This document shows, piece by piece, positions 2,427 to 8,825 of a DNA stretch of 64,000 nt. A program made the translations under genes and the position numbers. The notes beneath the pieces were generated by a model that had not been told where the DNA came from, ran no database searches, and saw nothing but the letters and a program-made list of their open reading frames with translations. The number at the start of each line of letters is the position of its first letter. Positions within the stretch are counted from its first letter, which is position 1. The stretch comes from Escherichia coli (GTDB lineage: Bacteria > Pseudomonadota > Gammaproteobacteria > Enterobacterales > Enterobacteriaceae): NCBI RefSeq assembly GCF_044324785.1, contig NZ_CP172127.1; one strand, 5' to 3'.

Positions 2427-3368
2427 ATGCGCGAAAAGGATTATGTCGTAATTATAGGTTCGGCGAATATTGATGTCGCCGGATATTCACATGAATCATT
2501 AAATTATGCGGATTCAAATCCAGGTAAAATAAAATTTACGCCTGGTGGAGTCGGGCGCAATATTGCACAAAACCTGGCGTTGCTGGGGAACAAAGCCTGG
2601 CTACTGAGCGCCGTAGGCAGTGATTTTTATGGTCAATCGCTGCTAACGCAAACCAATCAATCTGGCGTTTATGTCGATAAATGCCTGATAGTGCCGGGAG
2701 AAAATACGTCAAGCTATTTATCATTACTCGATAATACCGGTGAAATGCTGGTTGCTATAAATGACATGAATATTAGCAACGCTATTACAGCTGAATATCT
2801 CGCACAGCACCGTGAATTTATTCAGAGGGCAAAGGTCATTGTCGCAGACTGTAATATCAGTGAAGAGGCACTGGCATGGATTCTGGATAATGCCGCCAAC
2901 GTACCTGTATTTGTCGATCCTGTTTCCGCGTGGAAATGTGTCAAAGTGCGCGACCGTCTAAATCAAATCCACACTCTCAAGCCAAACCGCCTTGAAGCGG
3001 AAACCCTGAGTGGGATTGCGCTGTCAGGGCGTGAAGATGTGGCAAAAGTTGCTGCCTGGTTCCATCAACATGGCCTGAACCGACTGGTATTGAGCATGGG
3101 CGGCGACGGCGTTTATTACAGCGATATCAGCGGTGAAAGTGGCTGGTCTGCGCCGATCAAAACCAATGTTATTAATGTTACCGGAGCGGGCGATGCCATG
3201 ATGGCGGGGCTTGCTTCGTGTTGGGTAGACGGAATGCCGTTTGCCGAATCTGTTCGTTTCGCACAGGGATGTTCGTCAATGGCGCTCTCCTGTGAATACA
3301 CCAATAACCCCGATTTATCGATTGCCAACGTTATATCGTTAGTGGAGAACGCAGAATGTCTGAATTAA
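2427..3368 (+). CDS. psuK: Pseudouridine kinase (PfkB family)
   Basis: 313 aa; GAGDAMMAG PfkB signature; SD agagga; position and length as K-12 PsuK (YeiC). Confidence 0.9.
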   Translation: MREKDYVVIIGSANIDVAGYSHESLNYADSNPGKIKFTPGGVGRNIAQNLALLGNKAWLLSAVGSDFYGQSLLTQTNQSGVYVDKCLIVPGENTSSYLSLLDNTGEMLVAINDMNISNAITAEYLAQHREFIQRAKVIVADCNISEEALAWILDNAANVPVFVDPVSAWKCVKVRDRLNQIHTLKPNRLEAETLSGIALSGREDVAKVAAWFHQHGLNRLVLSMGGDGVYYSDISGESGWSAPIKTNVINVTGAGDAMMAGLASCWVDGMPFAESVRFAQGCSSMALSCEYTNNPDLSIANVISLVENAECLN

Positions 3369-4294
3369 AAATTTCCCCTGAATTATTACAAATTTCCCCA
3401 GAAGTGCAGGACGCTTTAAAAAACAAAAAACCGATCGTGGCGCTGGAATCGACCATTATTTCTCACGGGATGCCGTTCCCACAAAATGCCCAGACCGCAA
3501 TTGAAGTTGAAGAAACTATTCGTAAACAGGGCGCGGTACCTGCCACTATCGCCATTATTGGCGGCGTGATGAAAGTGGGTTTAAGCAAAGAAGAAATTGA
3601 ATTGCTGGGTCGTGAAGGGCATAACGTGACCAAAGTTAGTCGTCGCGATTTACCTTTTGTTGTTGCCGCAGGGAAAAATGGCGCAACCACCGTTGCTTCA
3701 ACGATGATTATTGCGGCGCTTGCCGGAATTAGAGTATTTGCCACCGGGGGAATTGGTGGTGTGCATCGCGGGGCGGAACATACCTTCGATATTTCTGCCG
3801 ATTTGCAAGAGCTGGCAAATACTAATGTCACCGTTGTTTGTGCCGGGGCGAAATCTATTCTCGATTTAGGATTAACCACTGAGTATTTAGAAACTTTCGG
3901 TGTACCGCTAATTGGCTATCAGACCAAAGCGCTGCCTGCGTTTTTCTGCCGTACCAGCCCGTTTGACGTCAGCATTCGTCTCGACAGCGCCAGTGAAATT
4001 GCCCGTGCAATGGCGGTGAAATGGCAAAGCGGGCTGAACGGTGGCCTCGTGGTAGCGAACCCGATCCCGGAACAGTTTGCGATGCCGGAGGAATCTATCA
4101 ATGCAGCCATAGATCAAGCCGTCGCCGAAGCCGAAGAGCAGGGCGTTATTGGTAAAGAAAGCACACCGTTCCTGCTGGCTCGTGTTGCTGAACTGACTGG
4201 CGGTGACAGCCTGAAATCCAACATCCAGCTGGTGTTCAACAACGCCATTCTGGCGAGCGAAATTGCCAAAGAATATCAGCGTCTCGCGGGTTAA
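3356..4294 (+). CDS. psuG: Pseudouridine-5'-phosphate glycosidase
   Basis: 312 aa, overlaps psuK stop by 13 nt (translational coupling); length and position as K-12 PsuG (YeiN). Confidence 0.9.
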   Translation: MSELKISPELLQISPEVQDALKNKKPIVALESTIISHGMPFPQNAQTAIEVEETIRKQGAVPATIAIIGGVMKVGLSKEEIELLGREGHNVTKVSRRDLPFVVAAGKNGATTVASTMIIAALAGIRVFATGGIGGVHRGAEHTFDISADLQELANTNVTVVCAGAKSILDLGLTTEYLETFGVPLIGYQTKALPAFFCRTSPFDVSIRLDSASEIARAMAVKWQSGLNGGLVVANPIPEQFAMPEESINAAIDQAVAEAEEQGVIGKESTPFLLARVAELTGGDSLKSNIQLVFNNAILASEIAKEYQRLAG

Positions 4295-5705: not shown

Positions 5706-6365
5706 TTACTGCATCATCCCGGAGAATTTATTCTCCGGGTCCATCTCCAGTGCCAGTCCTGACAACTGCTTTCTGTTTTTAATTAGATACCCTTTCTTGC
5801 TTTTAATTAATAAACCGTCGTGAATGAATTGCGCGAGAACATATAAAAGATGTCGATAAGAAACGCCTAAATACTCTGCCGCTTGCGTATGCTTTTCGTG
5901 ATAAAGATCACCTTCCTGCGAGAGTAATATAAAAGCTGCCAGGCGATTCACTAATGGAAATGATTGATTCTGAGTTAAAGAAACAATATTACGATAATTT
6001 TTATGACTTAAGGTGACGCAGAGTTTTCGTAAAAATAGCGTGTCGTTTAATAACAGCGGGCGGTAATGTTTCATAGGGAGCGCAAGGCACCAACACTCTT
6101 CAATAGCCTGCACCGCACGCGGTTCATGGTCTTTGTCGATTAACTCAATCTCGCCAATAAAACAGGGGGCGGCAAAGAAATCGATCAGCGACACGCGACC
6201 ATTAGCTAGCGTGGCGTAAAGCCTGGCGCGGCCTCGCGTCAGGTAAAACAGCCAGGACGGCTGTTGCCCTTCCTGCACAATGTAGTCACGCGCTAAAAAA
6301 TGAAACAGCCGCGTATCGGCTGAAACATCCGTTGAAAAGCAATCCTTAAACGCGGATTCACTCAT
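5706..6365 (-). CDS. yeiL: CRP/FNR-family transcriptional regulator
   Basis: ORF-track 232-aa frame begins at GTG; internal ATG at 6365 gives 219 aa (MSESAFKD...) matching the K-12 YeiL length; cNMP-binding-like fold plus C-terminal HTH. Confidence 0.85.
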
Positions 6366-6418
6366 CAATTGCTGCTTAAGATCATTATTGTGGATTTCTT
6401 TCACGATGTTTATCCGCT

Positions 6419-6432
6419 ATGAGATTTCTCAT
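6419..6432. promoter_or_regulatory. Perfect palindrome ATGAGA-TT-TCTCAT in the yeiL/rihB divergent promoter region
   Basis: Read directly; 54 bp upstream of the yeiL start, 102 bp upstream of the rihB start. Confidence 0.3.
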
Positions 6433-6533
6433 ATTTAGCATACGTACGCTGTTGTTAAGATTCAATCATCGGCCCGGTCGAATTTTCTTTGCTGTAGAAA
6501 AAATAACGCAACTGGAAACAGAGGAAATAAACA

Positions 6534-7475
6534 ATGGAAAAGAGAAAAATTATTCTGGATTGTGATCCGGGTCATGATGATGCTATTGCAATGATGATGG
6601 CAGCGAAACATCCGGCGATTGATTTATTAGGTATCACCATTGTAGCGGGTAATCAGACGCTTGATAAAACATTAATTAATGGCCTGAATGTTTGCCAGAA
6701 ACTGGAGATTAATGTTCCGGTTTATGCGGGGATGCCACAGCCCATTATGCGGCAACAAATTGTTGCCGATAATATTCACGGTGAAACCGGACTGGATGGC
6801 CCGGTATTCGAGCCGCTGACCCGCCAGGCAGAAAGCACTCATGCGGTGAAATATATCATCGATACCCTGATGGCAAGCGATGGCGATATCACTCTGGTGC
6901 CGGTTGGTCCGCTTTCAAATATCGCGGTGGCAATGCGTATGCAACCCGCGATCCTGCCCAAAATCCGTGAAATTGTGCTAATGGGCGGCGCTTACGGTAC
7001 AGGCAACTTCACCCCATCTGCCGAGTTCAACATCTTTGCCGACCCGGAAGCCGCACGCGTGGTGTTCACCTCCGGCGTTCCGTTGGTGATGATGGGCCTC
7101 GATCTCACCAACCAGACTGTTTGCACCCCGGACGTGATTGCCCGGATGGAAAGGGTAGGCGGCCCCGCCGGAGAGCTGTTCAGCGACATCATGAATTTCA
7201 CTCTAAAAACGCAGTTCGAAAACTACGGCCTGGCTGGCGGCCCGGTGCATGACGCCACCTGCATCGGTTATCTGATTAACCCTGATGGCATTAAAACCCA
7301 GGAGATGTACGTCGAAGTGGACGTTAACAGCGGCCCTTGCTACGGGCGTACGGTCTGCGACGAGCTGGGCGTTCTTGGCAAGCCCGCCAATACCAAAGTC
7401 GGCATCACTATTGATACCGACTGGTTCTGGGGATTAGTCGAAGAGTGCGTGCGCGGCTACATCAAAACCCATTAA
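6534..7475 (+). CDS. rihB: Pyrimidine-specific ribonucleoside hydrolase
   Basis: 313 aa; N-terminal DCDPGHDD nucleoside-hydrolase motif. Confidence 0.9.
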
Positions 7476-7521
7476 GTGTTGATAACAAGCCGGATCAGTG
7501 TCGCAAGATGCAGGCCCGGCT

Positions 7522-7549
7522 ATTTCTGATGGGCAGAAAGCCGTCGCCC
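7522..7549 (+). promoter_or_regulatory. Conserved 28-nt leader element (atttctgaTgggcagaaagccgtcgccc) upstream of nupX
   Basis: Near-identical copy of 4294-4321; the C-to-T change keeps the stem as a G-U pair. Confidence 0.5.
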
Positions 7550-7574
7550 AAAATGACATGAAGAGATAATAACT

Positions 7575-8825
7575 ATGGATGTCATGAGAAGTGTTCTGGG
7601 AATGGTGGTATTGCTGGCAATTGCGTTTTTGCTGTCAGTAAACAAGAAGAAGATCAGCCTGCGTACCGTTGGCGCGGCGTTAGTGTTACAGGTCGTGATT
7701 GGCGGCATTATGCTTTGGTTACCGCCAGGGCGTTGGGTCGCAGAAAAAGTCGCTTTTGGCGTGCATAAAGTGATGGCGTACAGCGACGCGGGTAGCGCAT
7801 TTATCTTTGGTTCTCTGGTCGGACCGAAAATGGACACCTTATTTGATGGCGCAGGATTTATCTTTGGCTTCAGGGTATTACCGGCAATTATCTTCGTTAC
7901 AGCACTGGTGAGTATTCTCTACTACATCGGTGTGATGGGGATCTTAATTCGAATTCTCGGCGGTATATTCCAGAAAGCATTGAATATCAGCAAGATCGAG
8001 TCATTCGTCGCGGTTACTACCATTTTCCTCGGGCAAAACGAAATTCCGGCAATCGTCAAACCCTTTATCGATCGTCTGAATCGCAATGAATTATTTACAG
8101 CGATTTGTAGTGGCATGGCCTCGATTGCTGGTTCGACAATGATTGGTTATGCCGCTCTGGGCGTGCCTGTGGAATATCTGCTGGCGGCATCGTTAATGGC
8201 GATCCCCGGCGGGATCTTGTTTGCCCGCCTGTTAAGCCCGGCTACCGAATCTTCGCAGGTTTCCTTTAATAACCTCTCTTTCACCGAAACACCGCCAAAA
8301 AGCATTATTGAAGCCGCCGCTACAGGGGCAATGACCGGGCTGAAAATCGCAGCAGGTGTGGCGACAGTGGTGATGGCATTTGTTGCCATCATTGCGTTGA
8401 TTAACGGAATTATCGGCGGCGTTGGCGGCTGGTTTGGTTTTGAACATGCCTCGCTGGAGTCAATTTTAGGTTATCTGTTGGCTCCACTGGCGTGGGTGAT
8501 GGGGGTTGACTGGAGTGATGCGAATCTTGCCGGGAGTTTGATTGGACAGAAACTGGCGATTAATGAATTTGTCGCTTACCTCAATTTCTCACCTTATCTG
8601 CAAACAGCTGGCACTCTGGATGCTAAAACCGTGGCGATTATTTCTTTCGCGTTGTGCGGTTTCGCTAACTTTGGTTCTATCGGGGTGGTGGTTGGCGCAT
8701 TTTCTGCGGTTGCGCCACACCGTGCACCGGAAATCGCCCAGCTTGGTTTACGCGCGCTGGCGGCGGCGACACTTTCTAACCTGATGAGTGCCACCATTGC
8801 AGGATTCTTTATTGGCTTAGCGTAG
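7575..8825 (+). CDS. nupX: NupC-family nucleoside transporter
   Basis: 416 aa, paralog of psuT. Confidence 0.9.
   Translation: MDVMRSVLGMVVLLAIAFLLSVNKKKISLRTVGAALVLQVVIGGIMLWLPPGRWVAEKVAFGVHKVMAYSDAGSAFIFGSLVGPKMDTLFDGAGFIFGFRVLPAIIFVTALVSILYYIGVMGILIRILGGIFQKALNISKIESFVAVTTIFLGQNEIPAIVKPFIDRLNRNELFTAICSGMASIAGSTMIGYAALGVPVEYLLAASLMAIPGGILFARLLSPATESSQVSFNNLSFTETPPKSIIEAAATGAMTGLKIAAGVATVVMAFVAIIALINGIIGGVGGWFGFEHASLESILGYLLAPLAWVMGVDWSDANLAGSLIGQKLAINEFVAYLNFSPYLQTAGTLDAKTVAIISFALCGFANFGSIGVVVGAFSAVAPHRAPEIAQLGLRALAAATLSNLMSATIAGFFIGLA

Follow-up and report, generated by a model that had tools for sequence, protein, structure and literature searches.

The inverted repeat between the divergently transcribed genes yeiL and rihB of Escherichia coli is best read, at a probability of roughly 0.7 and judging from sequence comparison, as an operator of the adjacent regulator YeiL, at which a bound dimer would activate rihB, and with it probably nupX, in the manner of a class II activator while blocking the promoter of yeiL itself. 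The sequence analyzed, referred to as the window, is the whole 64,000-nt stretch of DNA, in which positions 6419–6432 read ATGAGATTTCTCAT (ATGAGA-TT-TCTCAT). The original prediction described these letters as a perfect 14-bp palindrome. The arms ATGAGA and TCTCAT are complementary without mismatch, and to that extent the inverted repeat is real, but the TT at the center is not complementary to itself, with ATGAGAAATCTCAT as the reverse complement, and breaks the palindrome. The element is a 6-2-6 inverted repeat, and one more complementary base on each side extends it to 7-bp arms, TATGAGA-TT-TCTCATA. Its placement between divergent genes, one of which encodes a CRP/FNR-family regulator, agrees with the annotation, which has yeiL on the minus and rihB on the plus strand, and with the Pfam domains of YeiL, cNMP_binding (PF00027) and HTH_Crp_2 (PF13545). 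The pair is flanked by psuK, psuG, and psuT on one side and by nupX and yeiI on the other.

Taken by itself, the palindrome proves nothing, as its frequency within the window is that of chance, and its significance comes solely from conservation. Repeats with 6-bp arms and a 2-bp spacer number 20 in the window compared with 18.1 ± 4.0 in shuffled sequences, those with 7-bp arms and the same spacer number 5 compared with 4.65 ± 2.2, and repeats with 7-bp arms and spacers of 0–10 bp amount to about 88 per 64 kb. A scan of the window for the motif revealed no further site within three mismatches, and hence no evidence that psuKGT or yeiI has a site of its own. The part of the spacer that holds the repeat (window 6340–6560) is identical to that of E. 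coli K-12 MG1655, and a 75-bp stretch around the repeat is identical in 3066 E. coli records. Among the aligned Escherichia sequences the repeat is invariant, and the polymorphisms inspected all lie outside the repeat and the promoter hexamers proposed below.

Conservation across yeiL–rihB spacers had been named as a check on the repeat, and the motif is indeed kept. Eighty loci with yeiL homologs were fetched from one-genome-per-species collections by means of an alignment of YeiL homologs; one of these (L032) is truncated by the end of its contig and was left out, giving 79 evaluable loci. In 76 of the 79, the yeiL homolog is directly preceded by a match of at least 12/14 to TATGAGANNTCTCATA (TATGAGA-NN-TCTCATA), one further locus has an 11/14 match in the same place, and the motif is absent from two (L070 and L078). 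Across 640 kb of related loci, 77 matches of at least 12/14 were counted compared with 2.2 expected from shuffled sequences, and 34 perfect matches compared with 0 expected. Pairwise identity is 92% over the 14 specified motif positions compared with 30–43% in the adjacent 16-nt blocks, a contrast that, as judged from the alignments, is one of selection and not of recent transfer. A functionless chance repeat, with which the frequency inside the window would agree, is ruled out by this comparison of loci across phyla, by the identity contrast, and by the match counts, and has practically no probability left.

The family consensus of the operator is T[A/G]TGAGA-WW-TCTCA[T/C]A. Among Enterobacterales, the motif is found in Escherichia, Citrobacter, Salmonella arizonae, Klebsiella, Hafnia, and Pantoea. 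Its range in Firmicutes includes Enterococcus, the Lactobacillaceae genera Secundilactobacillus, Levilactobacillus, and Furfurilactobacillus, Hungatella and other Lachnospiraceae, Bacillaceae (Lysinibacillus/Solibacillus), Clostridium, Erysipelotrichaceae, and Pelosinus, and it is also present in one genome of Sebaldella, outside both groups. YeiL identity among the motif-bearing loci goes down to about 39–40%. Every distinct locus with a YeiL identity of at least 49% and the upstream region present is linked to rihB, and in each of these 48 distinct rihB-linked loci yeiL and rihB are transcribed divergently. In 27 distinct loci the divergent neighbor is a different gene, encoding an MFS/nucleoside-symporter-like protein, a methyltransferase, an NT5C nucleotidase, a HAD hydrolase, or a DMT or U32 protein, and the motif is still found upstream of the yeiL homolog.

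The manner in which the motif varies is consistent with a site for a dimeric regulator, as had been proposed. Read in the yeiL direction, the central dinucleotide is AA, TT, AT, or TA depending on the locus, and double changes among loci preserve the symmetry, as in TGTGAGA..TCTCACA and TAGGAGA..TCTCCTA; changes in a single arm, such as TCTCACA opposite TATGAGA, are common. The claim that the repeat does not match CRP or FNR spacing does not hold for CRP. When read as TATGA-GATTTC-TCATA, the repeat has the 5-N6-5 geometry of the CRP site (TGTGA-N6-TCACA), and this layout, typical of CRP/FNR-family operators, carries symmetric variants across 75 distinct loci. A cognate regulator is adjacent as well, since YeiL combines a cNMP-binding-like domain with a Crp-type helix-turn-helix (HTH). 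The further step to a regulator other than the neighboring one is thus not borne out: the motif accompanies yeiL homologs regardless of which gene lies beside them, and for this reason we infer that YeiL is most likely the binder. The pairing of protein and site is seen both as co-occurrence at the loci and as co-conservation of the recognition helix and the motif. YeiI, which had also been put forward for binding assays, is a sugar kinase by annotation, which gives no grounds for expecting DNA binding.

That the repeat serves CRP, FNR, or an unlinked dimeric factor instead is very unlikely. TATGA differs from TGTGA, the half-site of CRP, by a single base, and TGTGAGA occurs in some relatives; both E. 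coli arms, however, are TATGA and lack the second-position G that marks a CRP site proper. The main text of a preprint on genome-wide CRP footprinting in vitro has no rihB entry and no coordinate near the repeat, and the yeiL site given there is an intragenic one, 'ttCGTGAtaaagaTCACCttc (yeiL)' (PMC12871828). This intragenic site corresponds to GTGATAAAGATCAC at window positions 5898–5911, inside yeiL. Neither half-site of the repeat matches the FNR half-site TTGAT. Aligned by eye to an FNR site proper (TTGAT-N4-ATCAA), ATGAG-ATTT-CTCAT agrees at three of five bases per arm, and the repeat is absent from the FNR-like matches in the window with at most two mismatches. FNR is nevertheless said to regulate, and indeed repress, yeiL, and an FNR-like sequence, TTGTTaagaTTCAA, lies close by at 6452–6465. 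It is a separate sequence of a kind that occurs at chance frequency (40 observed compared with 31 expected in the window). The tracking of yeiL homologs by the motif, across phyla and across differing neighbor genes, argues against any of these factors.

TTGTTaagaTTCAA agrees with TTGAT-N4-ATCAA at 8 of 10 positions (two mismatches) and overlaps the predicted −35 hexamer of yeiL and the predicted −10 hexamer of rihB. An equivalent is visible by eye in other Enterobacterales, and its position would fit the reported repression of yeiL by FNR.

The protein that would occupy the site has a CRP/FNR-type fold, as the top Foldseek matches in the PDB are all CRP/GlxR/FNR-family proteins at a probability of 1.00. 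The recognition helix, EY[LM]GV[ST]YRHLL, is invariant at the level of [ST]YRHLL across all 80 homologs, with one altered (SYRHLQEV). The altered helix occurs in the sole locus that has the symmetric TAGGAGA/TCTCCTA site. In alignment, the YeiL helix corresponds to SRETVSRV in a CRP-family protein of solved structure and shares none of the base-contacting residues of that helix, so a half-site unlike that of CRP is to be expected. Recognition residues in the two best-known members of the family are R180, E181, and R185 of CRP and E209, S212, and R213 of FNR; the YeiL helix, SYRHLLYV, has no equivalents of either set. The TATGAGA half-site and the SYRHLL helix would, on this comparison, constitute an added specificity class in the CRP/FNR recognition code, assigned to a known orphan regulator.

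The start of yeiL differs by annotation: PGAP gives a protein of 232 residues initiated at the GTG at 6404, while the K-12 annotation gives 219 residues initiated at an ATG at 6365. Across 22 homologs, which range from Citrobacter to Enterococcus, the 13 additional N-terminal residues (MKEIxNxxLKQQL) are conserved, whereas the internal methionine that serves as the K-12 start is not. The NCBIfam YeiL model NF007707 covers residues 1–226 of the 232-residue form, and AlphaFold assigns pLDDT values of 93–94 to residues 1–20. The conserved N-terminus, the span of the model, and the high pLDDT together favor GTG 6404, which is very probably the true start, with the K-12 form probably truncated at its N-terminus. 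With this start, only 14 nt separate the repeat from the initiation codon downstream.

The sensor domain of YeiL has an invariant C81 and an invariant C104-W105-C106 (CWC) motif across the 22 homologs, along with a nearly invariant C129. FeSO4 has been reported to induce yeiL (PMC9308461), and YeiL has been reported to be proteolytically unstable (PMC12974527). The effector of YeiL may be redox-related or an Fe-S cluster rather than a nucleoside. PGAP carries the note 'activator of nucleoside metabolism' for the protein.

The arrangement of the site relative to promoter elements was derived by aligning the loci on the motif, scoring hexamers against TATAAT by column, and predicting transcript starts from the hexamers; the resulting E. 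coli coordinates are collected below.

Coordinates, in the window, of the genes and proposed regulatory elements of the yeiL–rihB region.
Feature	Position	Strand	Basis or remark
yeiL, CRP/FNR-family regulator, 232 aa from GTG 6404	5706..6404	−	annotation, Pfam, NCBIfam
Operator TATGAGA-TT-TCTCATA, proposed YeiL dimer site	6418..6433	both	conservation upstream of yeiL homologs
Predicted yeiL transcript start	about 6430	−	operator then at about −3 to +13
Predicted yeiL −10, TATGCT	6437..6442	−	3 nt upstream of operator; positional conservation
Predicted yeiL −35, TTGAAT	6460..6465	−	17 bp from −10; overlaps rihB −10 on other strand
Predicted rihB −10, TAAGAT	6456..6461	+	starts 30 nt after operator center
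Predicted rihB transcript start	about 6468	+	operator center then at about −42.5
rihB, pyrimidine ribonucleoside hydrolase, proposed operator target	6534..7475	+	annotation, Pfam IU_nuc_hydro
nupX, nucleoside transporter	7575..8825	+	same strand as rihB, 99-bp gap

Hexamers resembling −10 elements are conserved at fixed offsets from the motif on both strands, which counts in favor of the YeiL operator reading. On the yeiL strand, the order is TTGAAT or TTGCAT, 17 bp, TATGCT, TATACT, or TACACT, 3 nt, and then the motif. The −10 variants fall at anchored column 61 with a mean TATAAT score of 3.73 compared with a background of 1.86, and TTGAAT or TTGCAT is found at anchored column 38 in 26 of the 75 distinct sequences, with one-base-shifted versions in addition. 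On the opposite strand, the TATAAT score of the rihB-linked loci peaks at column 42 (4.33/6 compared with a background of 1.87), 30 nt from the motif center, and that of the other loci at column 43 (5.15/6), 29 nt from the center, which would place the site at −41.5. The hexamer is TATAAT in Firmicutes, TATGAT in most other Enterobacterales, and TAAGAT in all Escherichia sequences, and no recognizable −35 element was found for the rihB promoter. At the Angelakisella locus (L066), a second, perfect copy of the motif precedes an Imm51 gene and two genes for RihB-like hydrolases that are part of an operon, at a distance of 3.4 kb from the yeiL homolog; this independent copy lies 29 nt before a TATGAT hexamer, the spacing of the loci that are not rihB-linked (−41.5), and supports an activating role of the site. 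The predicted −10 starts 30 nt from the motif center at rihB-linked loci and 29 nt from it elsewhere, the second Angelakisella copy included, spacings that would suit a class II position.

Some points weigh against the model, among them the two homolog loci that lack the motif. The positions depend on predicted hexamers, and those of yeiL in E. coli agree with consensus at 8 of 12 positions, which is below the threshold of the consensus promoter scan; the scan reported neither predicted promoter. The rihB-linked center at −42.5 is also one base off the canonical −41.5. The supplements of SMRT-Cappable-seq data have no entry for yeiL or rihB. The one match of the consensus scan is a weak sigma-70-like sequence, TAAACA-17-AATAAT (6412..6384, minus strand), which was rejected as the main yeiL promoter given its location within the conserved N-terminal coding sequence and its restriction to Escherichia; if active, it would yield a transcript encoding only the 219-residue YeiL. 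Right after the predicted rihB start, the rihB leader (6469–6490, plus strand) contains a terminator-like hairpin of five pairs followed by ATTTTCTTTG. Polymorphisms within Escherichia fall in this hairpin, and it is not visible by eye in other genera.

The inverted repeat could also act as RNA, forming a hairpin where the yeiL mRNA begins, with effects on stability or translation. When fully transcribed, the repeat folds into a 6-bp stem with a 4-nt loop (−5.2 kcal/mol, z = −5.4), and it lies beside the ribosome-binding region of the GTG start. A transcript that begins at the predicted yeiL start, however, can form only 3 bp (−2.1 kcal/mol), and the center of the motif changes orientation relative to the gene. 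The common single-arm changes (TATGAGA with TCTCACA) would introduce A-C mismatches in the yeiL transcript, the second Angelakisella copy lies upstream of a −10 hexamer and outside the transcript predicted from that promoter, and the spacing to −10 hexamers is fixed on both strands. No Rfam family covers 6418–6433 at E ≤ 1. An RNA element was accordingly rejected for want of an Rfam match, the weakness of the hairpin, and variation that is symmetric rather than directional, and this reading is extremely unlikely.

In the preferred reading, a YeiL dimer would bind TATGAGA-WW-TCTCATA through the invariant recognition helix [ST]YRHLL. The divergent promoters would be compact and overlapping, with the −35 of yeiL (TTGAAT) and the −10 of rihB (TAAGAT) sharing bases on opposite strands. 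Bound at about −42.5 of rihB, YeiL would occupy the position of a class II activator and recruit RNA polymerase to a promoter that lacks a −35, switching on rihB and probably nupX too. The same dimer would cover the predicted transcript start of yeiL and thereby shut off its own transcription, so that one site would function as a toggle.

A YeiL site with other signs of regulation is unlikely, in which YeiL either activates its own gene, for instance from a further promoter, or holds both promoters repressed pending release by an effector. Self-repression, as posited in the preferred model, conflicts with the K-12 product name, 'DNA-binding transcriptional activator YeiL', and with the positive autoregulation of yeiL that Anjum, Green and Guest (Microbiology 2000) are said to have reported, both of which favor the alternative signs. 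The site also overlaps the place of a would-be −35 of rihB, which makes occlusion conceivable, and TAAACA-17-AATAAT lies downstream of the site. That sequence, however, falls within the conserved N-terminal coding region and is not conserved outside Escherichia, and as a promoter it would put the site at about −48.5, a position unsuited to activation. Occlusion is likewise opposed by the divergent promoters with a near-perfect −10, no −35, and class II spacing (5.15/6 at the 29-nt offset), as −35-less promoters with such spacing are typical of activator-dependent rather than repressed promoters.

Extension of the YeiL operator model to nupX draws on the region downstream of rihB. No promoter-like or plus-strand terminator-like site was found in the region of the rihB–nupX gap (7380–7620), and nupX is therefore probably co-transcribed with rihB; the order rihB–nupX is conserved in Enterobacterales. 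In E. coli, rihB has been called physiologically silent and its role unclear (PMC2898832), so any activation would need a signal. The weaker TAAGAT hexamer may contribute to this silence.

Natural variants of the locus were also encountered. In E. coli HeN100 (L085, 1200–2600), an IS5-like element of the ISKpn26 family stands in place of the entire repeat and the 5′ portion of yeiL. The element ends at TTAG (junction at window positions of about 6434–6437), just upstream of the rihB promoter region, and rihB–nupX is intact; the insertion could be a natural deletion of operator and regulator or a case of IS-activated rihB. The closest complete genome (L001, strain UID2309220033) has a psuT pseudogene with an internal stop next to yeiL (2789–4039).

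The divergent rihB–yeiL pair is common to Enterobacterales and Firmicutes (L021 and L025–L049 compared with the window). RihB is far more conserved than YeiL, with identities of 86% for RihB and 65% for YeiL in Hungatella and 76% and 58% in Enterococcus. The shared pair and the identity gap suggest, on sequence grounds, horizontal transfer of the module and a strong constraint on the hydrolase.

The proposed arrangement resembles class II CRP/FNR promoters in its 5-N6-5 palindrome, in a dimer with a cNMP-binding-like domain and a C-terminal HTH, and in a center located 29–30 nt before a conserved predicted −10 with no recognizable −35. It differs in the half-site, which is TATGAGA for YeiL compared with TGTGA for CRP and TTGAT for FNR, and in the predicted rihB-linked center at −42.5 compared with one near −41.5. 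The PrfA box of Listeria, tTAACAnnTGTtAa, is a 14-bp palindrome at −41.5 for a CRP/FNR-family activator. It shares with the YeiL site the 6/7-2-6/7 palindrome layout, the family of the activator, and, by prediction, the class II position, and is distinguished by another half-site, another branch of the family, and a regulon of virulence genes as opposed to nucleoside catabolism. FNR autoregulates negatively through an FNR site that overlaps the fnr transcript start, and the YeiL site would likewise be a palindromic site of a family member over its own, here predicted, transcript start. In contrast with fnr, one site would act on two divergent promoters that overlap, and the reported genetics of yeiL point to positive rather than negative autoregulation.

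RegulonDB lists one YeiL binding site, one regulated gene, and one regulated operon (PMC9308461), and the site listed is possibly the same sequence as the repeat. A survey of CRP/FNR motifs (PMC3590769) has no YeiL motif. A literature search returned nothing with the motif string, nothing tying YeiL to 'nucleoside', and nothing connecting YeiL and CRP with the site; the cross-phylum conservation, the class II geometry at rihB, and the revised start codon were not found in the literature searched. The repeat is not a new principle of regulation, and its analysis corrects the gene start of yeiL.

YeiL is among the few E. coli transcription factors essentially without a defined regulon, and a precise, deeply conserved probable operator with a clear predicted geometry opens both YeiL and rihB to direct functional tests, with the protein to be studied in its 232-residue form. 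At slightly less than even odds, YeiL and its 16-bp operator may be seen as an ancient, horizontally mobile one-site toggle that is carried with rihB among Firmicutes, Fusobacteria, and Enterobacterales, and in which effector-bound YeiL would turn nucleoside breakdown and uptake on and itself off. If this is true, earlier work with the 219-residue YeiL used a protein that lacks 13 conserved N-terminal residues, and the orphan regulator YeiL would gain a motif, a target, and a physiological role.
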